64,000 nucleotides of DNA, from assembly GCA_038239345.1 (NCBI GenBank), contig JBBSEX010000013.1, positions 15,103 through 79,102 of the forward strand, written 5' to 3'. Under the pieces are notes generated by a model, which saw only the letters and a program-made list of their open reading frames with translations, had not been told where the DNA came from and did not search any database. This document shows, piece by piece, positions 6,637-53,649 of the stretch; the stretch's first letter is position 1; each line of letters begins with the position of its first letter. The position numbers were made by a program, and so were the translations under genes. Source of the stretch: Bryobacterales bacterium. Its GTDB lineage: Bacteria > Acidobacteriota > Terriglobia > Bryobacterales > Bryobacteraceae.

Positions 6637-7413
6637 CTATTTGACGAACCCACGCTCGCCGGATTGCAGGAATTCAATCAATTCGTCAACCTCCGCGATC
6701 GGCGGAACTTCCTCGCGAATTCGCTCCAGCGCCTGCGAAGTATTAAGGCCCGATCGCGTCAATAAACGAAATGCTTTGTGCAACGCGTCAATCGTCTCCG
6801 CAGAGAATCCCCGCCGCTCCAAACCAGTCGCATTCGCGCCAAAAACTTTGATCTCCCGCGGACTCACCGTCGTCGAAAACGGCAAAACGTCCTGTGTCAC
6901 CACGCTATATCCGCCGATCATGGAATGGCGTCCTACCCGGCAAAATTGATGCACGCCCGTGAAGGCCCCAATCACCGCCCAATCGCCCACCAACACATGT
7001 CCCGCGAAGGTCACTCCATTCGCCAGCACCGCGTTGCTGCCCAATTGCACGTCATGCGCGATGTGCACATAGGCCATCAGTAAATTATCGTCGCCGATGC
7101 GCGTCGTCAAGCCGCCGCCTTCAGTTCCGCGATGTATGGTGACGAATTCGCGAATATTGTTGCGCTGGCCGATGTGGGTTTCCGCGCGCTCGCCTTTATA
7201 CTTTTTGTCCTGCGACGCGACGCCGATGCTGCAGTACGGATAGAATACGTTGTCTTCGCCGATGAATGTAACGCCCTCGACATAGACATGGGCCTTCAGG
7301 TGAGTTCGCGACCCGATTTTCACGTCCGCGCCGATGATGCAATACGGACCGATCTCCGCTGTCTCAGCGATGTGCGCGCTGGGATCGATCAGAGCGGTCT
7401 GATGAATGGACAT
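6637..7413 (-). CDS. lpxA: Acyl-ACP--UDP-N-acetylglucosamine O-acyltransferase
   Basis: The 258-aa product has left-handed beta-helix hexapeptide repeats (IHQTALIDPSAHIAETAEIGPYCIIGADVKIG...) and the LpxA C-terminal helical domain (GLERRGFSAETIDALHKAFRLL). Confidence 0.93.
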   Translation of the reverse strand: MSIHQTALIDPSAHIAETAEIGPYCIIGADVKIGSRTHLKAHVYVEGVTFIGEDNVFYPYCSIGVASQDKKYKGERAETHIGQRNNIREFVTIHRGTEGGGLTTRIGDDNLLMAYVHIAHDVQLGSNAVLANGVTFAGHVLVGDWAVIGAFTGVHQFCRVGRHSMIGGYSVVTQDVLPFSTTVSPREIKVFGANATGLERRGFSAETIDALHKAFRLLTRSGLNTSQALERIREEVPPIAEVDELIEFLQSGERGFVK

Positions 7414-7421
7414 GCGGCCGA

Positions 7422-7880
7422 CTACAGGTTTCCAGCTACCGGCGTCCGCTTATCTTGCAACGCACAGAGCACTCGCGCTTCGGCAACCACCTGGCCATCC
7501 ACCAGCGCCCGACCGGAAATCTTCGCCACGCTTGCCTTGCGCTTCTCGATTTGAACTTCCATGCGGAGTTGATCGCCCGGTCGTACCGGCCTCCGGAACT
7601 TGGCCTCTTCCACCGACGCCAGCAGCACCAATTTATTCTTTCGATCCGGCAGGAACTTCAACACCAACACGCCAGCCACCTGCGCCATAGCTTCAATAAT
7701 CATCACGCCCGGCATCACCGGGAACCCTGGAAAATGTCCAATGAAGAAGGGTTCGTTGATAGTGACGTTCTTGATGCCGACAATTTTCGTCTCGTCGATT
7801 TCCAGAATACGATCGACCAGAAGCATCGGATAGCGATGCGGCAGAATCTCTAGAATCTCATCGATATCCAAGGTGGGCAT
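7422..7880 (-). CDS. fabZ: 3-hydroxyacyl-ACP dehydratase
   Basis: The 152-aa product carries the FabZ hot-dog signatures LPHRYPMLLVDRILE and FFIGHFPGFPVMPGVMIIEAMAQ. Confidence 0.95.
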   Translation of the reverse strand: MPTLDIDEILEILPHRYPMLLVDRILEIDETKIVGIKNVTINEPFFIGHFPGFPVMPGVMIIEAMAQVAGVLVLKFLPDRKNKLVLLASVEEAKFRRPVRPGDQLRMEVQIEKRKASVAKISGRALVDGQVVAEARVLCALQDKRTPVAGNL

Positions 7881-7904
7881 GCAATGCCGCTATTATAACA
7901 AGCG

Positions 7905-9044
7905 ATGGATGCATTTCTTTCGCAGTGCCGCAAAAAACAAAAAGACATCATCGCGTTGATTCGCGAGTTCGTCGAGTGCGAATCACCCAGTGATCACGCC
8001 CCCTCCGTGGACCGTTTCGTCGATCTGGTTGCCGCCAAGGTCGCTGGAATCGCCAAGGTGAAAGTTATTCCGGGAAAGCCGTTTGGCCGGCATCTGCGCT
8101 GCGAGTTTGACCTTCCCGGAACGAAGAAGTCCGGCCAGATCCTGGCTCTCGGCCACTCCGATACCGTTTGGCCGCTGGGTACGTTAGCCACAATGCCGTT
8201 CCGCGAAAACAAAGGCCGCCTCTGGGGGCCTGGCGTGCTCGACATGAAAGGCGGCATCGCATTCTTCCTCTTTGCCGTCCGGATTCTTCGCGAGTTAGAT
8301 CAGCCGGTATCGCGCAAAATCGTTCTGCAGTTGAACTCCGATGAAGAAGTAGGCAGCGTTAGTTCCCGGCCGCTGACAGATGAGATCGCGCGCAAGAGCG
8401 CCGCAGTATTGGTGCTGGAACCTGGAACGGGGCTTGCAGGAAAGCTGAAGACTGCCCGAAAGGGAGTGGGAAATTACACGGTGACGGTTCACGGCAAAGC
8501 TTCGCACGCCGGAGTCGACTTCACTAATGGCGCAAGCGCAATCGTCGAATTGGCGCGGCAGATTGACGTCATTGCCGGGTTTACGCAACTTGATCGCGGG
8601 ATCACGGTAAACCCTGGCGTGATTAGCGGTGGGACGCGAACCAACGTGATCGCGGCCGAAGCTCATGCTGAAATCGATATCCGCATCGCGCGATTAAAAG
8701 ATGCCACCATACTTGATCGCCAGTTTAAGAAACTGCGGGCGATCGACACTCGCTGCACGCTGGAAATAGACGGCGGCTTAAATCGACCGCCAATGGAACG
8801 CACCGCTGAGATTGGAAAGTTGTTTCAGAGGGCGAAGGACCTGGCGCTGGAGCTAGGCGTCGATCTGGAAGAATCGTCTACCGGCGGCGGATCGGACGGC
8901 AATTTCACGGCGGCGTTCGGTATCCCTACTTTGGATGGGTTAGGCGCCGTGGGTGAAGGTGCCCATGCGGCTAATGAAAGCATCCTCATTAACCGCATAG
9001 CGGACCGCACGGCTTTGATCGCCAAGCTACTACAAGTAATTTAG
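7905..9044 (+). CDS. M20-family metallopeptidase (carboxypeptidase G2-like)
   Basis: The 379-aa product contains LGHSDTVWP, DMKGG, LNSDEEVGS and HGKASHAG, the M20 metal-binding and catalytic motifs. Confidence 0.85.
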   Translation: MDAFLSQCRKKQKDIIALIREFVECESPSDHAPSVDRFVDLVAAKVAGIAKVKVIPGKPFGRHLRCEFDLPGTKKSGQILALGHSDTVWPLGTLATMPFRENKGRLWGPGVLDMKGGIAFFLFAVRILRELDQPVSRKIVLQLNSDEEVGSVSSRPLTDEIARKSAAVLVLEPGTGLAGKLKTARKGVGNYTVTVHGKASHAGVDFTNGASAIVELARQIDVIAGFTQLDRGITVNPGVISGGTRTNVIAAEAHAEIDIRIARLKDATILDRQFKKLRAIDTRCTLEIDGGLNRPPMERTAEIGKLFQRAKDLALELGVDLEESSTGGGSDGNFTAAFGIPTLDGLGAVGEGAHAANESILINRIADRTALIAKLLQVI

Positions 9045-9751
9045 CGGCGTCCACCGTTGCCGACGCGAAGCAACAAATTGAGGATCGAAACGAATACGTT
9101 GAACAGACCGGCGAACAAAATTAGCGCCCCGGGAATGGGGCTATCGGCCTCCGGATTGTGAATCACTTCACTGGTCCCGTATACCAGAATGCACACACCC
9201 AAAATCCCGATACCGGCGGCGATAATGATTCCCAGCAGGCCGATGTTCAAGAACATATTCAAGACGGTAGCGGCGACAATGCTTACAAAAATCCCCGTCA
9301 TTAGGCCCTTTGGAGCCGAAAATGTGCGGCCGGAGCTCATAACATATATCGTCACCGTTGCGAACACGACGAGGGTCATCACAGCCGCGATCTGAATCAT
9401 GCCTGGCGCGAACTGGCTGGCATAAAACAGAATCGGAGTCAGGACCAGACCCGAAATAAATCCGTCCGCCACCAGCGCCGTCACTCCCAATACCGGATTG
9501 TGCCGCGCGGCGATCGCCACCCGGGGCATCACGAATAGAAGTCCCATCGCCACCAGCCAGCCGATCCGGCTTCCAAAAAACTGGACGACGGGTTCGGACG
9601 AAAGACCTAAATAGCCCCCGCAAAATGCCGCAACTACGCTGAGGCTGAGCAAGAGATAGGTCTTTTTGATGACCTCGGAACGGTCGCCCACTAAGTCGTG
9701 AACGCCGAAGAATTTCTCGCCCATGCCCAAGCCATTGCTATTCGTTGCCAT
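9041..9751 (-). CDS. Bax-inhibitor-1/YccA-family integral membrane protein
   Basis: The 236-aa product has seven hydrophobic segments and a C-terminal basic tail (LLLRVGNGGRR), with the overall BI-1 pattern. Confidence 0.8.
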   Translation of the reverse strand: MATNSNGLGMGEKFFGVHDLVGDRSEVIKKTYLLLSLSVVAAFCGGYLGLSSEPVVQFFGSRIGWLVAMGLLFVMPRVAIAARHNPVLGVTALVADGFISGLVLTPILFYASQFAPGMIQIAAVMTLVVFATVTIYVMSSGRTFSAPKGLMTGIFVSIVAATVLNMFLNIGLLGIIIAAGIGILGVCILVYGTSEVIHNPEADSPIPGALILFAGLFNVFVSILNLLLRVGNGGRR

Positions 9752-9782
9752 GAGTAGTCACCTCTCTTAAGCCTAACATTGT

Positions 9783-10805
9783 CTATAGTGATTCGACCTC
9801 GAAATTGACGTCCACGCGCCATTTCCGGCCGTCCCGTTGCAACTTGTCGGCGCGGAAATAATAGCGCCCTCGATAATCTTCCAGGCGAACCGGTAGCGTC
9901 ACCGGATCCTGCCAACACGTAATTGCATAGCCGCTTTGCAGCAGTGATTCCAATAGTAAATTCACCGCTGCGGAATCGAACGCCACGGCAATGTCGATAT
10001 CGTGCGCCTCCACGGGATCACCTTGTAACATTGCCGCGAGACTTCCAATCACCGTAAAAGATACGCCAGTCTTCGCCAACTCAGCCAGAATCGCCCGGGC
10101 GTCGTCGACAGCAATTCCTCGGTCCGGCTTTCGCGCCACGATCGCATATTCATGGGATCTATTGGTGTGGAGCGGAAATAATCCCGGCGCGCTATGCGGT
10201 TTGGCATATACGATAAGGCGTTCGTCGCACAATTCCAGCCGGCGCCCGATGGCACGCGCCAAATCCCACGCTAACGGAACGAAGCCACCGTCCGGTAGAC
10301 GAATATTCTCCGCCATGGCGATCAGGAACCGGCCCGGCCGCAGATGCGTTTTCAGCGTCCGCAGTATCTCGTCCATCTGCTCCCAATAATCGGCATAGGT
10401 CTCCGCCGAATACAGTTGCAAAGTGCCGCCAGTGCCTGTATAGCCAGACCCGAAATAAGGCACGGACGTCAGAATCAAATCGACCGGCTGGCGCAATGCA
10501 AGGCAGGTCCCACATCGGATTTCGGCCGCTGGAACACGCTTCCTGGCCAGTTCAACTCGTGATGGTTCTATCTCAAAACCTAATGCCCGGCGCCCTTCCG
10601 TGCCCGCGGCTAAGAGCGTAGTGCCAAATCCCGCGAAGGGATCTAGAACCAGTTCACCGGGCTTGCTGAACTGTCTGATGAATGGCCGCATCTGCTCCAC
10701 CCATCCGCAATCGCGTCCGGCGAACTCATCACTTTCGCGGACCAGCGGATCCAGTTCGTACGCCGGATCCTGATTCGTTAAATGAATCCAGCTATTCGGC
10801 GGCAC
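9783..10805 (-). CDS. SAM-dependent methyltransferase fused to a C-terminal Pol-beta-type nucleotidyltransferase-like domain
   Basis: The 340-aa product has motif I, VLDPFAGFGTTLLAAG (aa 53-66), followed by a motif IV-like ILTSVPYFG (aa 111-119). This I-then-IV order resembles UPF0020/Trm11-type methylases. The C-terminal roughly 110 aa carry IGS-x13-DIDIAV (aa 253-274), matching the hG[GS]-x9-13-Dh[DE]h NTase signature. Confidence 0.6.
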   Translation of the reverse strand: MPPNSWIHLTNQDPAYELDPLVRESDEFAGRDCGWVEQMRPFIRQFSKPGELVLDPFAGFGTTLLAAGTEGRRALGFEIEPSRVELARKRVPAAEIRCGTCLALRQPVDLILTSVPYFGSGYTGTGGTLQLYSAETYADYWEQMDEILRTLKTHLRPGRFLIAMAENIRLPDGGFVPLAWDLARAIGRRLELCDERLIVYAKPHSAPGLFPLHTNRSHEYAIVARKPDRGIAVDDARAILAELAKTGVSFTVIGSLAAMLQGDPVEAHDIDIAVAFDSAAVNLLLESLLQSGYAITCWQDPVTLPVRLEDYRGRYYFRADKLQRDGRKWRVDVNFEVESL

Positions 10806-11952
10806 TGGTCCTCAACAGAATTTGCTTCTCCGGATCCCAATCGCCGCATAAATTTCCATTGGCATGATAGATCAGTTTGTATACGCGGCCAGATCTATGC
10901 AAGCTCTTCATTTCGGTATAATCCGAGGTCTCAAAGGTAACCCGCACATCATCGGCGAAGAGGATGCCAAGGTTCCAGAAGTAATATCCCGCGGTGCAAT
11001 GAAGCGGCTGCGTCATGCCACAAAACTCTTCATTCGCCAAGCAATCCTCAATCAGGTCTTCGATCGAGAAACGTGTTTGCTCAATCGTAATCATCGTCTT
11101 GTTTGGCCGGTACAGGCCGCCCAACCGCGACAACTCGCGAAAGACGATATCAGTAACGCCGAGGGATCTGGCCCAGGAAATATATCGCAAGACCGCGGCC
11201 GCCGAATCGACGCCGCCGCGTTGTACGATGCAGACCAGCCTCACCGGGACGTGCTCCAGTACGTCCCGAACGGTAGCGTCGTAGACATCCTGGTGGACGA
11301 TTGGCTGCCCCGCGCGAAATCGCATGATGCGCTGATTGATTTCTCCGCTGTAGTAATGGCGGGACATCTCGGCCCGGGTCAGGTTAAATTGCGCTAGTCT
11401 GGGCAGTAGAACATCGCCTGTGGTCTCGCGGCAAAGACCGGCGGCATTGGTATAGAGAACACGCTCCTCCACTGTGCCCCCGGTGGCTGCAAAGCAATCC
11501 AATTGATCCAGCAAACGAAGCAGCCAACTGGCATCGTCCGTATTCTCTAAGCCCGATAAAGAAAACGATAAGGGCAGATGTTTCAGTTCCTCCAGCGCCC
11601 GGCGCAAGCCGTCGAAATAGTCCGCCTGGGGCCGGATGGAAGCCGACAATAAGTTGGAATCGCGATGCTGCAGCGTCTCTGAACAGAAGGTGCATCGCGC
11701 CGAGCAGGGCTTCGCCGAGGCAAACGGAGTAAACGTAATCGGCTGTCCAAAAAGATATTCAATCCCGCCGATTGTGTGGTGAAGCCATCGCTCATCATCG
11801 GCGCTCGGCGTTCGCAATGCGACACTCGGAACCCAGCACTGCAAACGGGGAAACAGCCGCGAGCGTCCAAGCATTCCTAGTCGGGCAAGCGGAAGACTTT
11901 GGGCGGGAAACGTCGGAAGCATTCTCTCTAGCGTATCCGACCGGGTAAGCAT
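10792..11952 (-). CDS. Radical-SAM enzyme of unassigned subfamily
   Basis: The 386-aa product has CSARCTFC (aa 83-90; verified at nt 11706-11683 as TGC TCG GCG CGA TGC ACC TTC TGT), which is the CX3CX2C [4Fe-4S] motif. A C-terminal Cys group is present: [16 protein letters not shown] ... LCGDWD. The gene overlaps the downstream methyltransferase gene by 14 nt. Confidence 0.7.
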
Positions 11953-12003
11953 CGGAAGTCATATAAGATAACAGGACACGCCGGCACAGGAGATTTCATT
12001 CGT

Positions 12004-12444
12004 ATGTCAGTGACAAAAGAGTTTAGAGAATTCGTTATGCGAGGGAATGTTCTCGATCTGGCGGTCGGTGTCATCATCGGCGCCTCGTTCGGGAAGATCG
12101 TCTCATCGCTGACCAACGATGTCATCATGCCGCCCATCGGCCTGTTGCTTGGCAAGGTCGACTTTTCCAATTTGTTCGTCAACTTGTCGCCCGTCGCGTA
12201 CGCTTCTTTGGCGGAAGCGAAAAAGGCCGGCGCGGCCACGATCAACTACGGAATCTTCCTCAACACAATTCTTGATTTCGTAATAGTCGCGTTCGTTATT
12301 TTTCTCATCGTGAAACAGGTCAACCGTTTTCACAAGGCGCCGGAAGCAGTGCCGGTGATTGTCACCAAAGAATGTCCCTATTGCCTCAGCAAGATTGCTC
12401 TCGGAGCCACGCGATGCCCGCAGTGTACGTCGGAGTTGAAGTAG
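12004..12444 (+). CDS. mscL: Large-conductance mechanosensitive channel with a C-terminal CxxC...CxxC tail
   Basis: The 146-aa product begins [44 protein letters not shown], the canonical MscL TM1 region. The tail is [20 protein letters not shown]. Confidence 0.95.
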
Positions 12445-12507
12445 CGACGTAAGCAAAGATTTTCAGCGCTTACTCACAGGTTTTTCAATAGATTTCAACA
12501 GCTTCTT

Positions 12508-14181
12508 CTACTTCGCCGAACCTTCTTTCAACGTCAGGATCTGATTCGCCTTCACGTTGGTATACACTTCGCGAAGGCCCAGCGGCCAACGAATTTCTAT
12601 ACTCGACGCCTCATCCGCTTCACCCAACCCGAAGTGCAGCCGTAAATCGCTTTGGGAATAAAAACTGGATTGGCTCAACACATCTTGCCGCTGCCTGCGT
12701 CCGCCCGCGGTCAGGATTACGGTTGCACCCAGCGCCGTCCGGTTTGACTTTGTGCCGATCAGTTTTAATTTCAGCCAGTGATTCGCCGCCTTCAAATCAT
12801 TCCGCAATAGCGACGGCGGTTCCCCCATGTTCATCACCAGCACGTCGATATCGCCATCATTATCGAAGTCGCCGAACGCACATCCGCGGCTGGAATGCGG
12901 CTCCAGAATTGCAGGACCCGCCTGTGCGCTGATGTCCTGCAGCACACCGCCACCCTTGTTGTGAAACACCACCCGGGGATTCTTATATTTATACTCGGCG
13001 AACGATTGCTCCACTTCCGGATATACATTTCCGTTGACGAAAAAGAGATCGGGCAGGCCATCGTTGTCCAGATCCACCAAACCTGCTCCCCAGCCCACAT
13101 AGCGCGTCAAAACGCCGAGCGAAGCCTTGGTCGTGACGTCTTCAAACAGCCCGCCGCCTTTGTTGTGATAGAGCACCGGAGTGTCATCCGCGAAATGAGT
13201 TTTGAACAAGTCCAGCCGTCCAGAATTATAAACGTCGCCGATCCCGACGCCCATACCCGCCTGCTCCCGGCCATCTTCGTTATAGGCAACACCCGACTCG
13301 AGGCCGATATCGATGAACGTACCGTCATGCTGATTTTTATAGAGGATGCTAGCCGTGGAATCGCAGGCGACGAAAATATCTGGCCATCCGTCGCCGTCGA
13401 AATCGGCCGCCACCGCCGTCATGGCGTAGCGCTTATCGGCCTTGGCGATACCAGACGCCTCAGAGACATCCGTGAACGTTCCATCGCCGTTGTTCTTGTA
13501 CAGCGCGTTCCGGCCTGTCGGCAAGCCCTTCGGACCGCAATTGACGGCGATGCCTTTCCACATGCAATTTTCCGCGGCACCAGGCTTGGGGGTCGTTTTC
13601 GGATCGAAATCGAGGTAAGTGCTAACGAATAGGTCGAGAAATCCGTCGCGATCGTAGTCGATGAAAGTGCACCCGGCGCCCCATCGCGGCTTAGGATTCA
13701 GCAGACCCGCTTGCTTCGTCACATCGGTGAATGTTCCATTGCCATTGTTGCGGTAGAGAATATTCTGGCCCCAACAGCTCAGGAAAAGGTCGTCAAAACC
13801 ATCGTTATTATAATCGCCAATACAGACTCCTGAAACCCACGCAACGCGCTCCAGGCCAGCTTTCTTGGTGACATCGCTGAATGTCCCGTCGCGATTATTT
13901 TTGTATAAGCGATTGCTGGTGGCAGGCGGCGCAGCATCCAGCCGTGAACCGCCAGGCACAAAGATATCGAGCCAGCCGTCATGGTCGAAATCGAAAAAAG
14001 CGATGCCGCACCCATTCGTTTCCAGAATGAATTGTTTATGGTCGGGCGCGCCGTAAACGATGGGTTCCGTCAAGCCCGCTTTCGCCGCAATATCGACGAA
14101 ATACGGCATTGCGTCCGCTTCCTTCGCGCGAGCCAACGCAGGCAATAGCAGCGGAAGCTTCAACAAATCGCGGCGCTTCAC
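12508..14181 (-). CDS. CRTAC1-family protein (FG-GAP/VCBS beta-propeller plus ASPIC/UnbV domain), Tat-type signal
   Basis: The 557-aa product has a KRRDLLK twin-arginine leader and repeated DxDxDGxxD loops (DFDHDGWLDIF, DYNNDGFDDLF, DYDRDGFLDLF, DFDGDGWPDIF, DLDNDGLPDLF, DFDNDGDIDVL). The C-terminal segment NRTALGATVILTAGGRRQRQDVLSQSSFYSQSDLRLHFGLG is the UnbV_ASPIC domain. Confidence 0.85.
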   Translation of the reverse strand: MKRRDLLKLPLLLPALARAKEADAMPYFVDIAAKAGLTEPIVYGAPDHKQFILETNGCGIAFFDFDHDGWLDIFVPGGSRLDAAPPATSNRLYKNNRDGTFSDVTKKAGLERVAWVSGVCIGDYNNDGFDDLFLSCWGQNILYRNNGNGTFTDVTKQAGLLNPKPRWGAGCTFIDYDRDGFLDLFVSTYLDFDPKTTPKPGAAENCMWKGIAVNCGPKGLPTGRNALYKNNGDGTFTDVSEASGIAKADKRYAMTAVAADFDGDGWPDIFVACDSTASILYKNQHDGTFIDIGLESGVAYNEDGREQAGMGVGIGDVYNSGRLDLFKTHFADDTPVLYHNKGGGLFEDVTTKASLGVLTRYVGWGAGLVDLDNDGLPDLFFVNGNVYPEVEQSFAEYKYKNPRVVFHNKGGGVLQDISAQAGPAILEPHSSRGCAFGDFDNDGDIDVLVMNMGEPPSLLRNDLKAANHWLKLKLIGTKSNRTALGATVILTAGGRRQRQDVLSQSSFYSQSDLRLHFGLGEADEASSIEIRWPLGLREVYTNVKANQILTLKEGSAK

Positions 14182-15911
14182 GATTTCGGCGCTTTCCCTT
14201 CCACAACCGTCAGAATTTGATTTACCGTCGTACCAGGGTACTTTTCTACTATTCCACTGGGCCAGCGGATCTCAATGTCGGCCTTCGCCGCCTTGCCTAA
14301 TCCGAAGTGCACGCGCATGTCATTCTGCGAAATATAACTGCCGCCGCTGCGAACCTCGTCCATTTGCCGGTGCGGACCATCCGTTGTACAAATGATGCGA
14401 GCCCCAATGCCGGAGCGGTTCGACTTCGTTCCCACCGTCTTCACCTTGATCCAGTTGTTCTTGATCGTCTGATCGCAGCGGAGCAGTTGCGGAACATCGT
14501 TGATGCAATTCACAACCACGTCGATGTCGCCGTCGTTATCGAAATCCCCAAAGGCACACCCACGCCCCGGCACTTTTTCCAGAATGCCAGGACCACCATC
14601 CATCGACACATCGGCGAACTTACCGTTACCCAAATTGCGGTACAACACCTTGCGCTCTCGATAACCGGACTCGGCGTCATTCTCGCCAACTTCCGGGTAC
14701 ACGTGTCCGTTGCACACGAAAATATCGGGCCATCCATCGTTATCGAAATCAAGAAAACCCACACCCCAGCCAAGGAAGCGCGTATTCTTTCCCAAACCGG
14801 TTTGAAACGTCATGTCTTCAAAAAATCCGTTTCCCTGATTACGATACAAGCTCGACGTATCGCCGGCGAAATTGGTTTTGACAATATCGAGTTGGCCGTC
14901 ACAATCGAAGTCCACGGCCGATACGCCCATTCCCGCTTGCGGCTTACCGTCGGCGCTATAAGCAACGCCGGCTTCGATTGCTACATCGGTAAACGTGCCA
15001 TCGTGGTTGTTCTTATAGAGTGCCGATGAGGTGGAATCGTTGGCCACGTAGATGTCGGGCCAGCCGTCATTATCGAAGTCCGCTACCAACACCCCAAGCC
15101 CGTATGTTCCCGGCGTTTTAAGAATGCCCGAGGTCTCCGATACGTCAGTGAACGTACCGTCGCCGTTGTTGTGAAACAGAATATTCTTTCCCCCTTGTAA
15201 GCCTGGAGGACCGCAGGCGACTACCAACCCTTTATAGAGACACGGGCCCGATTCGGGCAGAGGCGCGGTCTTCGGATCGAAGTCGATATAGTTGGCCACA
15301 AATAAATCCAGGTGGCCGTCACGATCGTAATCCAGGAATGCACAGCCCGTGTTCCAGCGCTGCAGACCAGTAGTTGTACGGCTAGTCACACCCGCCTTCA
15401 ACGCGACATCGGTAAACGTTCCGTTGCCGTTGTTTCGATACAGCGCGCAGTCGCCCCAATACGTTACGAAGAGGTCCTCATGGCCGTCGTTGTTATAGTC
15501 GCCCACACAAACGCCTTGCCCCCAGCCCGTTCTAACCAGACCCGCTTTAGCGGTTACATCGGTGAAAGTACCGTCGCGATTGTTCTTGTAAAGACGGCCC
15601 GTGGGCTCTTCCCCCTTGGCATATTTCGCTTCAAAGCGCGTTCCATTCACCAGGAAGATGTCCAGCCAACCGTCATCGTCATAGTCGAAGAACGCGACGC
15701 CGCATCCGGTAGTCTCGAGCAAAAAACGATTCCGCTTTTCGCTGCCGAACGTGGTCTTCATGCGCAATCCGGCCTCGCGCGCTACATTGACGAATTGAAA
15801 ACCTAAGGGAAGTCCTTGCACCAATTGATCGAAAGTGAAGACGCCTGCGGTGGCGCAGATCGATTGTATAAACCTCCGGCGCGTCGGCACTACGGCCTTC
15901 CTTGTCGACAC
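14178..15911 (-). CDS. CRTAC1-family protein (FG-GAP beta-propeller plus ASPIC/UnbV), paralogue of the downstream gene, Tat-type signal
   Basis: The 577-aa product has a TRRRFIQS leader, seven FG-GAP Ca-loop repeats (DYDDDGWLDIF ... DFDNDGDIDVV) and a C-terminal NRSGIGARIICTTDGPHRQMDEVRSGGSYISQNDMRVHFGLG. It overlaps the next gene by 4 nt. Confidence 0.85.
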   Translation of the reverse strand: MSTRKAVVPTRRRFIQSICATAGVFTFDQLVQGLPLGFQFVNVAREAGLRMKTTFGSEKRNRFLLETTGCGVAFFDYDDDGWLDIFLVNGTRFEAKYAKGEEPTGRLYKNNRDGTFTDVTAKAGLVRTGWGQGVCVGDYNNDGHEDLFVTYWGDCALYRNNGNGTFTDVALKAGVTSRTTTGLQRWNTGCAFLDYDRDGHLDLFVANYIDFDPKTAPLPESGPCLYKGLVVACGPPGLQGGKNILFHNNGDGTFTDVSETSGILKTPGTYGLGVLVADFDNDGWPDIYVANDSTSSALYKNNHDGTFTDVAIEAGVAYSADGKPQAGMGVSAVDFDCDGQLDIVKTNFAGDTSSLYRNQGNGFFEDMTFQTGLGKNTRFLGWGVGFLDFDNDGWPDIFVCNGHVYPEVGENDAESGYRERKVLYRNLGNGKFADVSMDGGPGILEKVPGRGCAFGDFDNDGDIDVVVNCINDVPQLLRCDQTIKNNWIKVKTVGTKSNRSGIGARIICTTDGPHRQMDEVRSGGSYISQNDMRVHFGLGKAAKADIEIRWPSGIVEKYPGTTVNQILTVVEGKAPKS

Positions 15912-50624: not shown

Positions 50625-51269
50625 CTATGGAGAAAGACGTTCGATACGCCATGATTCCCCCTCCGGCCAATAGCGGATTCGATCGTGCAGGCGGCTGCGG
50701 CGTCCTTGCCAGAATTCGAAACAGCCGGGCTTAACGCGATAACCTCCCCAGAAATCGGGCAACGGAACTTCACCATCGGAATATTCCGCCGTCAAGCGAG
50801 CCATTTCGCTTTCCAGAAATTCGCGCCCCGAAATTACAGAACTTTGCCGGGAGATCGATGCTCCCAAACGGCTGGCCACGGGGCGCGTGCGGAAGTAGGC
50901 CCCTGAGTCTTCGCGGGTCACCTTTAGAACCGTCCCGGTGATACGGATCTGGCGCTCCAGTTCGGCCCAATAGAAAACCAAAGCGGCGTTCGGATTGCCA
51001 GCCAGTTCGCGCCCCTTCTGGCTCTCATAGTTCGTGTAAAAGACAAACCCCTGTTCGTCGAATCCTTTCAGCAAAACGATGCGCGCGTCCGGACGGCACT
51101 GCGAATCCACCGTCGCCAGCGTCATCGCGTTCGGCTCTTTTAACTCCGACGCCAGTGCTTGTAGAAACCATTTCTCGAACTGCCGTAACGGGTCGGGATC
51201 GACATCCGCCTCATTCAGCGCCGCCAATTTGTAATCCAGCCGTAAATCGGCAATGCTAAGCGGCTCCAT
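50625..51269 (-). CDS. pdxH: Pyridoxamine/pyridoxine 5'-phosphate oxidase
   Basis: The product contains NAMTLATVDSQCRPDARIVLLKGFDEQGFVFYTNYESQKGRE and FEFWQGRRSRLHDRIRY. The start ATG at 51269-51267 overlaps the upstream stop as TGATG. Confidence 0.9.
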   Translation of the reverse strand: MEPLSIADLRLDYKLAALNEADVDPDPLRQFEKWFLQALASELKEPNAMTLATVDSQCRPDARIVLLKGFDEQGFVFYTNYESQKGRELAGNPNAALVFYWAELERQIRITGTVLKVTREDSGAYFRTRPVASRLGASISRQSSVISGREFLESEMARLTAEYSDGEVPLPDFWGGYRVKPGCFEFWQGRRSRLHDRIRYWPEGESWRIERLSP

Positions 51270-52819
51270 CAGATCTTGAACTCTATACCCTGCGCCAGCG
51301 GAAGTTCGCTTGACCAATTAATAGTTACCGTCTGACGGCGCATGTAAGCCTTCCACGAATCGCTGCCCGATTCGCGTCCACCGCCTGTTTCCTTTTCGCC
51401 GCCGAAGGCACCGCCAATCTCCGCCCCGCTGGTCCCGATGTTGACGTTCGCGATTCCACAGTCGCTACCGCGTGCGCTAAGAAAGGTCTCGGCGGAAATC
51501 AGGCTCGTAGTAAATATCGCCGACGATAATCCTTGCGGAACATTATTGTGCCATTCGATGGCTTCTTCCAGATGGTCGAACTCCACCAGATAGAGGATCG
51601 GCGCGAAAATCTCCAGCTTCAGGATGGACATCCGCTCATGCGCCCGCACCAGTGTTGGCGTGACGTAGCAGCCGCCCGGTGAATTCAGCTCACTGCCGCC
51701 GGCGAGAATTTCGCCGTACTGTTCCTTGATGTCTTCAATGCCGTCCATCATCCGGCGAACGGCGCCCGGCTCAATCAGCGGTCCAACCAGCGTCTTTGGG
51801 TCAAGCGGATTGCCCACCTGCAATTGCTTATACACATTCACCAGTTGCTCGGTGAACTTTTGGGCGATCGGCTTGTGAAGAAATATCCGCCGAATGCTGG
51901 TGCAACGCTGTCCCGCGGTTCCCACGGCACCAAACACAGCGGCCCGTAAAGCCAAGTCGAGGTTCGCGTCTTCCATCACGATCATGCCGTTGTTACCGCC
52001 TAGTTCCAGCAGCGTTCGTCCATAGCGCGCGCCCACCACTTCCGCAACTCGAGCACCCATGCGCGACGAACCGGTAGCGCTGATCAGCGGAAGACGCTTG
52101 TCGATCAGCATCCGTTCGCCCACGGCTTCGTCGGTACCGATCACCAGATTGACGACGCCTTTCCACCCGTGCCGGTCAAGCACGCGATTACAAATATTCT
52201 GCACCGCGATCGCGGTCAGCGGCGTTCGCAACGATGGCTTCCAGACAACGCAATCGCCGCAGACCATCGCGATCAACGCGTTCCAACTCCACACCGCCAC
52301 CGGAAAATTAAACGCCGAAATCACACCCACGATTCCCAACGGATGCCACTGTTCATACATCCGGTGCTCCGGGCGTTCACTGTGCGTCGTCAAGCCGTAA
52401 AGCTGGCGCGAGAGTCCCACGGCGAAATCGGCGATGTCGATCATCTCCTGCACTTCGCCCTTACCCTCGGCCAGGATCTTACCCATCTCCAGCGTTACCA
52501 GAGTGCCAAGATCGTCCTTGTAACGGCGCAGTTCGTCGCCAATCTCGCGTACGATTTCGCCACGCTTGGGCGCTGGCAACAATCGCCATTTCTTGAACGT
52601 TGCCGCCGCATGCCACAGGACGTCGTCGTATTCTTCTTCTTCGGCCAGTCGGACGCGAGCGATTTCCTTGCCGTCAATCGGACTGATGGATGCGATTTCC
52701 TCACCCTCCGTATCGATCCACTCGCCCCAGCACGCGCCGGAATTCACGGCTTGAATTCCCAAACGCTCCAGTAACTCGCGGTAGTGCGTCGCTTCCACTA
52801 ATGAGTCCGTGCTAACCAT
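51269..52819 (-). CDS. ALDH7-type aldehyde dehydrogenase (alpha-aminoadipic semialdehyde / piperideine-6-carboxylate dehydrogenase-like)
   Basis: The 516-aa product contains LEMGKILAEGKGEVQEMIDIADFAVGLSRQLYG (ALDH7 hallmark), FNFPVAVWSWN, ELGGNN and GQRCTS (catalytic Cys). Confidence 0.88.
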   Translation of the reverse strand: MVSTDSLVEATHYRELLERLGIQAVNSGACWGEWIDTEGEEIASISPIDGKEIARVRLAEEEEYDDVLWHAAATFKKWRLLPAPKRGEIVREIGDELRRYKDDLGTLVTLEMGKILAEGKGEVQEMIDIADFAVGLSRQLYGLTTHSERPEHRMYEQWHPLGIVGVISAFNFPVAVWSWNALIAMVCGDCVVWKPSLRTPLTAIAVQNICNRVLDRHGWKGVVNLVIGTDEAVGERMLIDKRLPLISATGSSRMGARVAEVVGARYGRTLLELGGNNGMIVMEDANLDLALRAAVFGAVGTAGQRCTSIRRIFLHKPIAQKFTEQLVNVYKQLQVGNPLDPKTLVGPLIEPGAVRRMMDGIEDIKEQYGEILAGGSELNSPGGCYVTPTLVRAHERMSILKLEIFAPILYLVEFDHLEEAIEWHNNVPQGLSSAIFTTSLISAETFLSARGSDCGIANVNIGTSGAEIGGAFGGEKETGGGRESGSDSWKAYMRRQTVTINWSSELPLAQGIEFKI

Positions 52820-53649
52820 GAGAATCCTTCCGGCCCGGTGGCGAATCGCTTTCCCGCCAAGGCCGCCTTGTCTTTGATCTGCTGAATCACTTCGGCTTGA
52901 AATTGTGGATCAAGCCATTCTGAAAACGATCTCACTTTACTGATGCGCCAAGCCCCGTCGCCAGTGGTTGCGCCGTTACGCTTCACGGAGCGCACGTGCA
53001 GCGGATCTCCTATTAGATCATTGCCAGTCGCATCGATTACCGCCGTCACCAGATGCCCGATGTTCGAAGGCAACAGCGGCGAAAGCGTAGCGTAAGTCTC
53101 AATGCCAGCCTGCCGAAGTCGGCGGATGGTGGCAATTCGCTCCTCGAAGGTCGCGCAGAACGGCTCATACCAGCGGCGAACATCCTCGCGGTCTGTCGTG
53201 ACAGAAAAACTCACACGCAAAATCGTGCGCCGGGAGACCTCCAGCAGCTTCCCAAGATCCCGCAGAATAAGTGGCCCGCGCGTCTGCACAGTGAACGCTA
53301 ACGGTGGCGATTGAATAACACAATCCAGTATCCGGGGCATCATCCGCTCCGTTTCCTCAGCAGGCTGATAAGGGTCTACCAACGGCGAGCAATAGATGAT
53401 CTGATCGGGCCGCAAGGCCTTCTCCAATAGGCTTGGCGCGTTGCTCTTAAACGTTGTGAATTGTCCCCAGCGTTTCCAATCTTCCGGTTTTAGCCCGCCT
53501 TGCACGCGCATCGTCGGCACATAACAGTAGGTACAGCCGAACGTGCAATTCCGCGCTGGCGTCAGCGAATGCGTGAACCCGGCTTCGGCAATGAAGCCCG
53601 ATGTTCTGCTAAGAATGCTTTTCGCCTCGGCCCGGAGGATGGGGAACAC
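52798..53649 (-). CDS. Radical-SAM protein of the SplB/DNA-photolyase-like (COG1533-type) group
   Basis: The 283-aa product has NCTFGCTYCYV (CX3CX2C) near the N-terminus and the DPYQP motif. It overlaps the ALDH start by 22 nt. Confidence 0.7.
   Translation of the reverse strand: MFPILRAEAKSILSRTSGFIAEAGFTHSLTPARNCTFGCTYCYVPTMRVQGGLKPEDWKRWGQFTTFKSNAPSLLEKALRPDQIIYCSPLVDPYQPAEETERMMPRILDCVIQSPPLAFTVQTRGPLILRDLGKLLEVSRRTILRVSFSVTTDREDVRRWYEPFCATFEERIATIRRLRQAGIETYATLSPLLPSNIGHLVTAVIDATGNDLIGDPLHVRSVKRNGATTGDGAWRISKVRSFSEWLDPQFQAEVIQQIKDKAALAGKRFATGPEGFSWLARTH

Follow-up and report, generated by a model that had tools for sequence, protein, structure and literature searches.

The 64,000-nucleotide stretch of Bryobacterales DNA analysed here (the window) carries a two-gene cassette in which a radical-SAM (rSAM) enzyme, gene 1, overlaps a methyltransferase–nucleotidyltransferase (MTase–NTase) fusion, gene 2. 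Gene 1 founds a deeply divergent, uncharacterised rSAM family that lacks an auxiliary cluster and whose predicted fold resembles MoaA and viperin. The rSAM enzyme and the NTase are the conserved core of the cassette, to which the MTase is an optional, lineage-specific addition, and in about half of the related loci the pair is found in NAD-salvage operons or beside NrtR or NrtR-type operators. Our tentatively favoured reading is that the cassette works as a self-contained module that tailors nucleotides, with a substrate related to NAD or ADP-ribose, and is not a phage defence system.

The locus and its relatives

The features of the cassette are collected in Table 1. The NCBI gene calls on the identical contig (P0390, 386 aa, and P0121, 340 aa) have the same lengths as the two ORFs, and at E<=1e-3 there are 327 homologues of gene 1 and 222 of gene 2. 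With hundreds of homologues for both, the ORFs are real genes and not chance reading frames. Both ORFs and their overlap lie exactly where a sequence-only reading of the window had placed them, and the distance of 51 nt that it gave between the cassette and the divergent mscL start was correct when measured; the spacer to the yccA-like start is 31 nt. The 14-nt overlap suggests translational coupling, and in related loci the rSAM gene and its partner are as a rule closely spaced. No Rfam element was found in 11953..12003.

Table 1 Features of the cassette in the window.
Feature	Position	Strand	Basis
Gene 1, radical-SAM enzyme, 386 aa, ATG start	10792..11952	-	ORF call
Gene 2, MTase–NTase fusion, 340 aa, GTG start	9783..10805	-	ORF call
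Overlap of gene 1 end and gene 2 GTG start, 14 nt	10792..10805	-	ORF coordinates
CSARCTFC codons, C83-x3-C87-x2-C90 (CX3CX2C, radical-SAM [4Fe-4S] ligands)	11683..11706	-	Cys positions and alignment A1
Class-I SAM methyltransferase, ~aa 1-225 of gene 2	10131..10805	-	PF01555, motifs, AF2, Foldseek
Minimal Pol-beta-type NTase, ~aa 228-340 of gene 2	9786..10124	-	PF10706, motifs
Divergent spacer between gene 1 and mscL, 51 nt, without NrtR-type operator, unlike locus L001	11953..12003	.	Sequence read

The same reading had thought that the cassette looked, from its context, like an inserted accessory module, and had added hand counts of G+C from samples that it called too small to be conclusive. 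The counts themselves were right (0.483 at 10801-10980 and 0.633 at 13081-13140), but they reflect local noise and no anomaly. The G+C of the cassette is 0.559 against a window mean of 0.5675, corresponding to the 34th percentile of equal-sized windows, and its GC3 of 0.61-0.64 was recorded as inside the range of its neighbours (given as 0.63-0.69), values that are ordinary and do not bear out a recently inserted, compositionally distinct module.

In 72 of 80 related loci, or 72 of the 77 with enough sequence, the gene immediately following the rSAM gene encodes the NTase; of the eight loci without it, five have room for one and three are truncated contigs. Myxococcota, Nocardia, Planctomycetota and Hymenobacter carry the NTase as a gene of its own, Actinomadura (L014) has the MTase and the NTase in two separate genes, and the window's fusion of the NTase to an NPPY-like N-methyltransferase is shared by most Proteobacteria. 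Single-chain fusions join the rSAM enzyme to the NTase in five proteins (P0273, P0289, P0291, P0297 and P0269) and to the MTase in one (P0294). The rSAM enzyme and the NTase form a functional unit, and the proposal of an uncharacterised, co-conserved cassette is borne out by the downstream position of the NTase and by the fusions. The family spans at least five bacterial phyla and a eukaryotic offshoot, and searching a 50%-identity protein library returned 727 representatives at E<=1e-3. The division into a conserved core and an optional MTase had been missed in the sequence-only reading.

Folds and active sites of the two proteins

The CX3CX2C motif that had been read in gene 1 is present, and C83, C87 and C90 are invariant across 32 homologues (alignment A1). 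So are A85, R86, F89, S91 and E92, and the invariant basic residues are R86, R107, R198, H199, R211, R213, R272, R294 and K359. A C-terminal group of four further cysteines had been proposed to hold an auxiliary cluster. The group exists in the window protein, with spacing x6/x7 (C304-x6-C311-x7-C319 plus C369) instead of the x7/x7 first given, but the cluster finds no support in A1, where C304, C311 and C319 are not conserved and the only conserved cysteines outside the motif are C241 (invariant) and C369 (at least 90%). Neither SPASM nor Fer4_12 of Pfam matched gene 1.

The impression that gene 1 could not be placed in any characterised rSAM subfamily was confirmed by the profile searches, since gene 1 had no match in Pfam and matched zero families of NCBIfam and PADLOC at E<=1, and its profile found nothing among PDB sequences. 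The generic rSAM model PF04055 had no match at E<=1 in the window protein and precomputed or weak matches in a few homologues; this model misses the family, which is too divergent.

The AF2 model of gene 1 (pLDDT 95.2, pTM 0.93) gave 59 Foldseek matches in the PDB at E<=1e-3, virtually all of them rSAM enzymes. According to the model, gene 1 is predicted to share the partial (beta/alpha)6 TIM-barrel of solved rSAM enzymes, together with an N-terminal extension (~75 aa, structured) and a C-terminal domain rich in beta structure (~90 aa). The best matches were MoaA and viperin, at 12-16% identity, followed by DesII, BlsE and SPASM enzymes. TM values of about 0.5 make the predicted likeness to MoaA and viperin a modest one, and SPASM-type peptide enzymes score nearly as high.

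Both MoaA and viperin act on nucleoside triphosphates. MoaA, the GTP 3',8-cyclase of molybdenum cofactor biosynthesis (2fb2, TMq 0.54, TMt 0.63), holds its triphosphate by conserved Arg and Lys residues and has its CX3CX2C motif at the same N-terminal position as gene 1, and the strand motifs 'YTNxxG', 'xSxxxx' and 'VFRExS' of gene 1 may, judged by eye, be equivalent to the xTNG-like and hRFhE-like motifs of MoaA. However, the two have no sequence-level relation, and gene 1 matched neither Mob_synth_C nor the NCBIfam MoaA model. The C-terminal auxiliary [4Fe-4S] cluster with which MoaA binds GTP (three conserved Cys) is absent in gene 1, and unlike MoaA the pair is not associated with moaB/C/D/E. 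Viperin and the prokaryotic viperins (pVips), which make 3'-deoxy-3',4'-didehydro-NTPs (ddhNTPs), are the second-best structural class (6q2p, 5vsl and 9dfw; TMq 0.45-0.48, TMt 0.57-0.65), with an rmsd of about 5 A, 13-16% identity, a common core and different N- and C-terminal domains. Like the predicted gene 1 protein, viperin is a single-cluster rSAM enzyme without an auxiliary cluster, and the distant eukaryotic branch of the gene 1 family resembles eukaryotic viperin in having an N-terminal membrane helix. The gene 1 family is set apart from viperin by its N-terminal extension and C-terminal domain, by an obligate Pol-beta NTase partner that pVips do not have, by the lack of a defence-island context and by the lack of a match to the PADLOC and NCBIfam viperin models.

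In gene 2 the motifs DPFAGFGTT (motif I) and SVPYFG (motif IV-like) and the Pol-beta NTase signature (GS...DIDI...D), all named in the sequence-only reading, are present and conserved. The MTase half matches PF01555 at 2e-18 (67.6 bits, cutoff 26.7), but the best stretch covers profile positions 170-220 of 221 only, the C-terminal part. Motif I (DPFxGxGTT, aa 55-63) and its preceding helix strongly resemble the beta-class N6/N4 DNA MTases of this Pfam family, in which the order is IV (DPPY/SPPY), target-recognition domain (TRD), I (FxGxG), whereas in gene 2 motif I lies ahead of the motif IV-like [ST][SN][VIL]PYFG (aa 114-119) and there is no TRD. The PDB alignments are permuted relative to the beta-class enzymes, and the AF2 model predicts a compact 7-strand core with no TRD-sized insert. 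The residues D55, P56, F57, G59, P116, Y117 and F118 are invariant. Foldseek returned generic MTases with Trm11 and TrmN among them, which share with gene 2 the I-to-IV order and the compact fold. Motif IV is an aromatic P-Y-F motif, [SN][VIL]PYF instead of (D/N/S)PPY, and unlike the Trm11/RsmC/HemK type the MTase is fused to an NTase and has neither a Trm112 partner nor a THUMP domain. The PADLOC matches of gene 2 are to generic MTase models only, many of them 'MTase_II', and its homologues carry the source annotation 'DNA methyltransferase', while UniRef calls several of them 'TRM11 family'.

The best Pfam match of the NTase half is PF10706 (aminoglycoside-2''-adenylyltransferase), which it passes at 2.4e-6 with 28.2 bits against a cutoff of 21; family NTases that stand alone reach no more than 14 bits, under the cutoff. 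Its Pol-beta residues G254-S255, D269-x-D271 and D332 are invariant in alignments A2 and A4, except S255 (at least 90% in A4), and a W, a Y and an R are also invariant in fused and stand-alone versions alike. The NTase belongs to the Pol-beta superfamily (hG[GS]-x9-13-Dh[DE]h and a third acidic residue), and judged from these motifs its active site appears catalytically intact. It resembles the minimal NTases (MNT of HEPN-MNT, AbiEii/MenT, ANT(2'')-Ia and TM1012/DUF2204) in its length of ~110-160 aa, hG[GS], DxD and third acidic residue, and the family has weak matches to PF10706, PF09970, PF14907, TM1012 and the AbiEii/MenT toxin 8an4. The best PDB sequence match, also weak, was an AbiEii/MenT tRNA-modifying toxin, and the NTase profile had no significant match in the PDB (E=0.24). 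The family differs from MNT in having no HEPN partner and in its own invariant W, Y and R, and from known minimal NTases in always being paired with or fused to an rSAM enzyme.

Association with NAD salvage and NrtR

When 132 neighbour proteins from 20 genera were scanned in bulk against Pfam, they matched NUDIX (9), NAPRTase/NAMPT (6), NMNAT-type CTP_transf_like (5), NAD synthase (3) and NrtR_WHD (2), and the identities of the NAD genes were confirmed in follow-up searches. Genes of the NadV–NadM(Nudix) operons and the NrtR regulon (PMC2330246), that is nadV, nadM-nudix, pncB or nadE, lie close upstream in 32 of the 80 loci, and in 31 of these the pair comes next on the same strand, the exception being the divergent L073. 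The order nadM-nudix, nadV, rSAM is found in 22 loci and the order pncB, nadE, nadM-nudix, rSAM in 8. The nrtR gene adjoins the pair in 14 loci, five of which are nrtR<>rSAM divergons in Massilia/Pseudoduganella. In an Elusimicrobia locus (L010) a tight operon reads nrtR-rSAM-MTase-NADK-like-pncB-nadE, with a NAD-kinase homologue (E=2.3e-11) in the position of the NTase. The genomic association with NAD genes and NrtR holds in the relatives, through at least six architectures in five phyla. The Xanthomonadales loci, numerous as they are, may descend from a single ancestral arrangement. This setting had also escaped the sequence-only reading.

A 21-bp palindrome, TTAGT-N11-ACTAA, had 21 matches in 1.5 Mb, 19 of which fall in promoter regions, either those of the cassette or those of its NAD operon. 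A perfect TTAGTGT-N7-ACACTAA is found at -54 in an Acidobacteriota locus (L001), a palindrome box at -60 in a Polyangiales locus (L017) and related boxes at -48 to -114 in three Nocardia loci; candidate NrtR boxes are present in L001, L017, L003, L007, L008, Massilia and Oxalobacteraceae. The published NrtR consensus is a 21-bp palindrome with a GT-N7-AC core, and NrtR is a repressor that responds to ADP-ribose (PMC2330246). The boxes in the family promoters fit this consensus and are putative NrtR operators.

The window copy is stand-alone, with no NAD genes or NrtR box nearby: tblastn found no NAD genes in the 64-kb window, a pattern search found no NrtR box in 11953-12003, and the sole box-like site in the window, at 52781, is inside coding sequence. 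Roughly one locus in two (Variovorax, Burkholderia, most Myxococcota, Actinomadura and Tahibacter) showed neither NAD genes nor a recognisable operator.

An NrtR-regulated operon of unknown role, nrtX-nrtY, has been described in Streptomyces, Frankia, Kineococcus, Proteus (mirabilis) and Hahella (PMC2330246), and its architecture, nrtR<>X-Y, is the same as that of the nrtR<>pair arrangement in Massilia. None of these genera was found among the best 120 homologues of the window protein or of an actinobacterial member, and therefore identity of nrtX-nrtY with the pair is not supported. A literature search for NrtR, nadV or nadM together with radical SAM returned nothing relevant.

Candidate functions

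An operon neighbourhood indicates functional association and not a substrate. Since the pair is repeatedly co-operonic with nadV, nadM-nudix, pncB and nadE and under NrtR, the substrate is most likely a nucleotide of NAD turnover, that is an adenine or pyridine (di)nucleotide such as NAD, NMN or NaMN, ADP-ribose, or ATP feeding these. The nucleotide-handling logic suggested by the sequence-only reading is plausible, with MoaA and viperin as the nearest folds and intact motifs in the partner NTase. We infer the substrate class, the order of the steps and the physiological role as follows. The rSAM enzyme, with its MoaA/viperin-like barrel, one predicted [4Fe-4S] cluster and numerous invariant Arg, His and Lys positions, would cleave SAM to a 5'-deoxyadenosyl radical that abstracts a hydrogen from a phosphorylated nucleoside substrate. 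The NTase would use an NTP to nucleotidylate a hydroxyl on the same metabolite, its precursor or its product, and the MTase, if present, would N-methylate an exocyclic or amide nitrogen.

A more specific version, which we regard as possible but doubtful, is that the pair makes or repairs a new nucleotide derived from NAD or ADP-ribose, such as a dinucleotide that is ribose-dehydrated, cyclised or 2'/3'-nucleotidylated, and is induced through NrtR upon ADP-ribose build-up. It would then open a new branch in pyridine-nucleotide metabolism, and might act as an inducible response when NAD is depleted in the way that NADase immune effectors or phage attack deplete it. To our knowledge, the routes of NAD biosynthesis and salvage are regarded as mapped in all essentials, none of the known ones uses radical chemistry, and the described NAD pathways contain no rSAM enzyme, Pol-beta NTase or NPPY-type MTase. 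That the pair is repeatedly joined to nadV/nadM and pncB/nadE operons and to the NrtR regulon would imply an unrecognised NAD-related nucleotide reaction with a role in salvage, repair, signalling or as an antimetabolite, a question that is directly testable because the candidate substrates are few. An answer would give a function to a sizeable family of 'hypothetical proteins' and correct the widespread 'DNA methyltransferase' label on the partner protein.

Anti-phage defence, which the sequence-only reading had named on an equal footing with tRNA or nucleotide hypermodification, is an unlikely alternative. A viperin-like antiviral or conflict module, in which the rSAM enzyme makes a chain-terminating or toxic nucleotide analogue that the NTase and MTase process or deliver, would agree with viperins being among the closest solved folds and with the patchy taxonomic spread and changing genomic locations of the family, which suit an accessory gene. 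ADP-ribose is moreover a product of NADase immune effectors and is sensed by NrtR (PMC2330246), so induction at NAD depletion could serve defence. However, the cassette has no PADLOC match beyond the generic MTase models. Among the 132 neighbours from 20 genera there was no enrichment of defence genes (the 'PDC-S07' matches are the Nudix box only), and the neighbourhoods that were surveyed held no nucleotide kinase as a partner. No family copy was found in IMG/VR contigs, one megaplasmid copy was found among 72,556 plasmids, and the one match in phage records has 21.6% identity. Within genera, for example Variovorax and Lysobacter, the pair also keeps a stable, syntenic position.

No more probable than defence is a role in tRNA or rRNA modification, where a Trm11/RsmC-like N-MTase, an NTase acting on an RNA 3'-end or ribose and the rSAM enzyme would share one RNA target, possibly NAD-capped RNA. 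The I-to-IV order and [SN]xPYF of the MTase recall RNA m2G/m6A enzymes, as do the Trm11 and TrmN folds and UniRef names, the NTase points weakly to tRNA-modifying MenT/AbiEii, and RlmN, TYW1 and Elp3 come further down among the fold matches of the rSAM enzyme. But the MTase is missing in many lineages and therefore cannot define an RNA pathway, neither protein has a THUMP, PUA, S4 or OB domain, a sporadic distribution would be odd for a core RNA modification, and the NAD-salvage/NrtR setting is left unexplained unless the target is NAD-capped RNA.

Modification of, or resistance to, an antibiotic or xenobiotic is distinctly improbable. Here an ANT(2'')-like NTase would inactivate an aminoglycoside-like compound that the rSAM enzyme and the MTase tailor or detoxify. 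The fold matches of gene 1 include DesII and BlsE, rSAM enzymes whose substrates are sugar nucleotides or nucleoside antibiotics, the family is hosted by soil bacteria with abundant secondary metabolism, and one Firmicutes-like fusion sits among glyoxalase and GNAT genes. The PF10706 match of the window protein would also agree with this, but as mentioned above the stand-alone NTases fall under the cutoff. No recurring biosynthetic-cluster, efflux or resistance context was found, the pair is nearly absent from plasmids, and the NAD context is again unexplained.

Very improbable is an orphan or restriction-linked DNA methyltransferase with accessory genes, which the PF01555 and 'MTase_II' matches and the database names would suggest, because the models match the motif-I segment only (about 50 aa), the motif order is I to IV in a predicted structure without room for a TRD, no endonuclease neighbour was found in the inspected neighbourhoods, and the MTase is dispensable in many lineages. 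Equally remote is a role of the pair in maturing a RiPP or other peptide from a small precursor: SuiB, anSME and CteB (SPASM-type) are among the fold matches and NTP_transf_5-like NTases are present in some RiPP clusters, but gene 1 has no SPASM or twitch cysteines, no conserved small ORF lies beside the pair (the window spacers are 51 and 31 nt), and no RRE, protease or transporter neighbours were found in the inspected neighbourhoods.

As a minor observation on the closest structural relative of gene 1, a genuine MoaA is separately present in one of the related loci (L096).

The overlapping gene pair and its setting

The cassette consists of a radical-SAM (rSAM) gene (gene 1) and, downstream of it, a gene for a methyltransferase-nucleotidyltransferase (MTase-NTase) fusion (gene 2). 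The sequence-only reading had described two overlapping reading frames; both were confirmed here, on the minus strand, with the extent and the 14-nt overlap that it gave. The NCBI gene calls for the identical public contig give the same lengths (P0390, 386 aa; P0121, 340 aa), and we take the two products to be co-translated enzymes. In the Logan gene call (P0001) an alternative start of gene 1 is placed 26 codons downstream; the long form was retained because homologues align across this region and confidence in the AF2 model is high from roughly residue 10 onward.

Coordinates of the cassette and of the flanking genes in the window
Feature	Coordinates	Strand	Product	Basis of assignment
gene 1	10792..11952	-	386 aa, ATG start	
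gene 2	9783..10805	-	340 aa, GTG start	
lpxA-like	6637..7413			reading of translation
fabZ-like	7422..7880			reading of translation
M20-type peptidase	7905..9044			reading of translation
BI-1/YccA-type membrane protein	9041..9751			reading of translation
mscL	12004..12444			Pfam calls, identical contig
two tandem FG-GAP/ASPIC-UnbV proteins	12508..15911			Pfam calls, identical contig

The cassette does lie where it had been placed, between the BI-1/YccA-type gene and mscL with a 51-nt upstream spacer, and its flanks (6637-9751 and 12004-15911) are ordinary housekeeping genes, whose content points to an Acidobacteriota-like genome. From this context it had been taken for an inserted accessory module, and two local G+C counts (0.483 and 0.633) had been offered with reserve. 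The counts are right but are local noise. Over its whole length the cassette has a G+C of 0.559, the window averages 0.5675, and among windows of the same size the cassette ranks at the 34th percentile. The GC3 values (0.61-0.64) are similar to those of the flanking genes (0.63-0.69), and composition gives no support for a recent insertion. No Rfam element, the NAD+ riboswitch included, was found near the cassette in the window.

The radical-SAM protein and its nucleotidyltransferase partner

Gene 1 carries C83-x3-C87-x2-C90, the CX3CX2C radical-SAM motif that had been noticed by eye, and the three cysteines are invariant in an alignment of 32 homologues. Searches at E<=1 against Pfam (PF04055 included), NCBIfam and PADLOC gave no match, and sequence searches of the PDB, with the single query or with a 32-sequence profile, gave nothing meaningful. 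The AF2 model (pLDDT 95.2, pTM 0.93) contains an N-terminal extension, structured and about 75 residues long, followed by an intact radical-SAM barrel and a C-terminal beta-rich domain of about 90 residues. Nearly all Foldseek matches in the PDB were radical-SAM enzymes, in the order MoaA (TMq 0.54), viperins (TMq 0.45-0.48), then SuiB, DesII, anSME and BlsE, at 12-16% identity, while a BFVD fold search returned generic rSAM folds only. A confident fold, such distant structural neighbours and the lack of a sequence-model match together indicate that gene 1 is, as far as sequence and model can tell, a genuine radical-SAM enzyme of a branch far from every characterised one, in line with the earlier failure to place it in any characterised subfamily. 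A word-indexed search yielded 327 homologues, and an exhaustive 50%-identity library held 727 representatives at E<=1e-3 and 120 at <=1e-30.

The nearest folds, MoaA and viperin, both act on nucleoside triphosphates, and the family would work most like these two NTP-directed enzymes. It belongs to neither, differing from them in its lack of a sequence-model match, its terminal domains and its partner, and the auxiliary cluster of MoaA is missing. Such a cluster had been proposed for gene 1 from a C-terminal four-Cys group. The group is present, but with x6 and x7 spacing (C304-x6-C311-x7-C319, plus C369), and the auxiliary cluster is unsupported because C304, C311 and C319 are unconserved in the family; the only conserved cysteines outside the cluster motif are C241 (invariant) and C369 (at least 90%). 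The invariant residues R86, R107, R198, H199, R211, R213, R272, R294 and K359 are compatible with a phosphorylated substrate.

The description of gene 2 as a SAM-methyltransferase joined to a Pol-beta NTase-like domain was borne out by motifs and Pfam matches. Its MTase half matches PF01555 (N6_N4_Mtase, 67.6 bits) through the motif-I segment only, with motif I (DPFxGxGTT) at aa 55-63 and a motif IV-like [ST][SN][VIL]PYFG at aa 113-119. This order, I before IV, is the reverse of that in beta-class DNA methylases; the AF2 model (pLDDT 85.8) has a compact seven-strand core without a target-recognition domain, and Foldseek returned generic class-I methyltransferases, among them Trm11 and TrmN, two tRNA enzymes of the NPPY type. 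The usual annotation of gene 2 homologues as DNA methyltransferases is therefore doubtful, and against this motif order and the missing target-recognition domain a DNA methylation system is highly improbable. The NTase half, the C-terminal 110 residues, is a minimal nucleotidyltransferase of the Pol-beta type, scoring 28.2 bits on PF10706 (cutoff 21), with an intact catalytic triad; G254-S, D269-x-D271 and D332 are conserved in both fused and stand-alone NTases, together with W, Y and R residues peculiar to the family. A profile search of the PDB with this half found no close solved relative, the best match being AbiEii/MenT at a marginal E=0.24.

Loci with related cassettes were surveyed in one genome per GTDB species, with downstream partners identified by HMMs built from gene 2; 184 loci were found and the best 80 retained. 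In 72 of these best 80 of 184 the gene that directly follows the rSAM gene, in the same direction, encodes an NTase, so that the pair is co-conserved elsewhere; three of the other eight are contigs that end too early. The MTase-NTase fusion occurs in about 60 of the 80. A stand-alone NTase (160-190 aa) without MTase is found in Planctomycetota, Nocardia and Myxococcota (L002-L005, L007-L009, L011, L017) and on a Hymenobacter megaplasmid, and MTase and NTase are separate genes in Actinomadura (L014). Single chains join rSAM to NTase (P0273, P0289, P0291, P0297, P0269) or to MTase (P0294). Adjacency, fusions and MTase-free lineages indicate, on comparative grounds, that rSAM and NTase are the conserved functional unit and the MTase a lineage-specific addition.

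Departures from this pattern include a solo rSAM gene in three Myxococcota and, in Nannocystis punicea, a DUF6368 protein that replaces the NTase after the rSAM gene (L026 11039-11641; L086 9213-9728); no literature was found on DUF6368. On the metagenomic contig L096 the closest gene 2 homologue besides the identical P0121 (P0122, 8001-9017, 53% identity) is a solo MTase-NTase with no adjacent rSAM gene of the family; its surroundings include a genuine MoaA (4 kb upstream) and a Nudix gene (2 kb downstream). In L095, the context of P0004 (55% identity to the window protein), the rSAM gene is preceded immediately by an ECF-type sigma factor gene and followed by an unrelated 312-aa protein with CxxC pairs (9221-10159) that has no Pfam, MTase or NTase match.

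NAD genes and predicted NrtR operators beside the cassette in relatives

Neighbourhoods were analyzed by bulk scans of the 132 nearest proteins from 20 genus-diverse loci, with genes called by a GC3 criterion because antisense ORFs in high-GC DNA confounded plain neighbourhood clustering. The commonest Pfam families among these neighbours were NUDIX (9), NAPRTase/NAMPT (6), NMNAT-type CTP_transf_like (5), NAD synthase with CN_hydrolase (3) and the winged helix of NrtR (2); the NAD gene identities were confirmed by individual scans. Among the best 80 of 184 loci, 32 have NAD genes a short way upstream of the rSAM gene, on the same strand except in L073, and nrtR, the gene for the ADP-ribose-sensing repressor, adjoins the cassette in 14.

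Arrangements of NAD genes, nrtR and the cassette in relatives (MT/NT, MTase-NTase fusion; <>, divergent)
Arrangement	Lineage	Loci
nadM-nudix -> nadV -> rSAM -> MT/NT	Lysobacter, Xanthomonas, other Xanthomonadales, plus Paraburkholderia	22
nrtR <> pncB -> nadE -> nadM-nudix -> rSAM -> MT/NT	Herbaspirillum and relatives (Oxalobacteraceae)	8
nrtR <> rSAM-MT/NT divergon	Massilia / Pseudoduganella	5
nrtR -> rSAM, nadV + nadM divergent	Pseudomonadales MAG (L073)	1
nrtR-rSAM-MTase-X-pncB-nadE, translationally coupled operon	Elusimicrobia (L010)	1

At least six distinct NAD/NrtR architectures in five phyla make the association hard to ascribe to one shared ancestral arrangement. In the Elusimicrobia operon, X (11577-12551) takes the place of the NTase; it is a divergent homologue of NAD kinases (human NADK2, E=2.3e-11) with no Pfam match at 1e-4.

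A 21-bp palindrome, TTAGT-N11-ACTAA, is present in the Massilia divergons. A search of 1.5 Mb that allowed one mismatch gave 21 sites; 19 of them fall in the promoter of the cassette or of its NAD operon, and two of these 19 belong to lineages without a visible nrtR gene (L001 and L017). In Acidobacteriota L001, the closest genomic relative of the window protein (56% identity), the rSAM gene has a perfect TTAGTGTATAGATTACACTAA at -54; the site in Polyangiales L017 is at -60, and three Nocardia loci have TTAGTC...GACTAA palindromes at -48 to -114. These predicted sites agree with the NrtR operator as published, which is palindromic, 21 bp long and built around a GT-N7-AC core, and from which ADP-ribose frees NrtR (PMC2330246).

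The window copy is unremarkable in its context. By tblastn no NAD genes were found throughout the 64 kb, and there is no NrtR box in the 51-nt spacer upstream of gene 1. The sole box-like site in the window, GTAGTGCGTCGCTTCCACTAA (52781-52801, three mismatches), lies where the minus-strand ORFs 51269..52819 and 52798..53649 meet and is probably meaningless, since chance alone predicts 0.66 sites of this kind. Copies in Variovorax, Burkholderia, Tahibacter, Actinomadura and most Myxococcota have no NAD neighbours or recognisable box. It is at the level of the family that the NAD link is surprising, and there it is directly testable. An uncharacterised NrtR-regulated two-gene operon, nrtX-nrtY, is known from Streptomyces, Frankia, Kineococcus, Proteus and Hahella (Rodionov et al. 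2008, PMC2330246) and has the architecture of the Massilia divergons, but its identity with the rSAM cassette is unsupported, these five genera being absent among the close homologues listed. Literature searches turned up no paper that connects a radical-SAM enzyme with NrtR, nadV or nadM.

Two further neighbourhoods were noted. In Pseudomonas indica (L047) about 14 nt separate the rSAM gene from the end of a co-oriented HAD-family phosphatase gene (9241-9894), and a gene for a 185-aa Nudix protein (8616-9173) lies just upstream on the opposite strand; both are possible extra pathway members. In Nocardia sp. NPDC058058 (L082, about 1-16 kb) the rSAM-NTase pair, whose NTase ORF is missing from the public annotation, adjoins TerD, AIM24, PRTase_2/TRSP/StiP/PELOTA_1 and C-C_Bond_Lyase genes, with Dak1/Dak2/EIIA-HPr genes directly upstream. 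We take the TerD/AIM24/PRTase_2/C-C_Bond_Lyase genes to be the "Ter-associated nucleoside-like metabolite" set of Anantharaman, Iyer and Aravind.

Candidate substrate and competing readings

We rate the family as belonging with nucleotide-tailoring rSAM modules, and tentatively favour an NAD- or ADP-ribose-related nucleotide as the substrate. MoaA and viperin abstract hydrogen from the ribose of a nucleotide; the rSAM enzyme would take hydrogen from a nucleotide too, most plausibly from the ribose. The NTase would put an NMP on a hydroxyl of the same metabolite, its precursor or its product; one candidate, hinted at by the NAD-kinase homologue that replaces the NTase in L010, is a ribose hydroxyl on an NAD-like dinucleotide. 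In some lineages the MTase would add a methyl group; an aromatic P-Y-F motif is typical of N-methylation on planar amino or amide groups. To our knowledge, no described NAD pathway employs radical-SAM chemistry, and on a more radical reading the family may represent a new branch of NAD/ADP-ribose metabolism, perhaps inducible on NAD depletion.

A viperin-like antiviral module, one proposal of the sequence-only reading, has the fold neighbours of gene 1 on its side but is unlikely. PADLOC has no model matching gene 1 and only generic MTase models matching gene 2, and its bulk scan of the 132 neighbours from 20 loci gave no defence signal, which argues against a defence island: there were scattered single matches and eight to "PDC-S07", which were rejected as defence genes, being a generic Nudix box. 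Literature searches gave nothing relevant on rSAM, NTase and MTase defence systems or viperin-like operons. The family is also nearly absent from mobile elements, with no relatives in IMG/VR, one carrier among 72,556 plasmids by tblastn (the Hymenobacter megaplasmid) and one weak match (21.6% identity) among 50,697 phage records, and a mobile-element or phage origin was rejected on these results. Neither is it carried by the 1,961 NadV-bearing phage records, which represent phage NAD-salvage modules. Flanking genes vary between phyla and stay stable within genera. The sole phage match, in Dulem virus 40 (L094, PP511379.1, 5081-7234), is a distant "MoaA-like" rSAM gene; the genes on its two sides encode a NAT-superfamily acetyltransferase and another Fe-S oxidoreductase.

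RNA modification, the other earlier proposal, can point to tRNA enzymes among the fold matches of the MTase half and is a shade less probable still. We give modification of an antibiotic or xenobiotic a smaller chance again, and RiPP maturation as slight a one as DNA methylation; what probability remains goes to something else.

Finally, a distant rSAM subfamily (P0283, at L089 6001-7242; P0276; P0287; P0303, at L092) has the motif FTPYADxxxCxAHCxFCSE and an N-terminal transmembrane helix. The other genes of the L089 contig (about 1 Mb) are eukaryotic-looking (TRAPP, RCC1/WD40, F-box LRR, fragmented exons); other members include one on a TARA ocean scaffold and one opening with an apparent translated adapter, presumably an artefact typical of eukaryotic transcriptomes. 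These sequences suggest a eukaryotic, membrane-anchored branch of the family, which recalls viperin.
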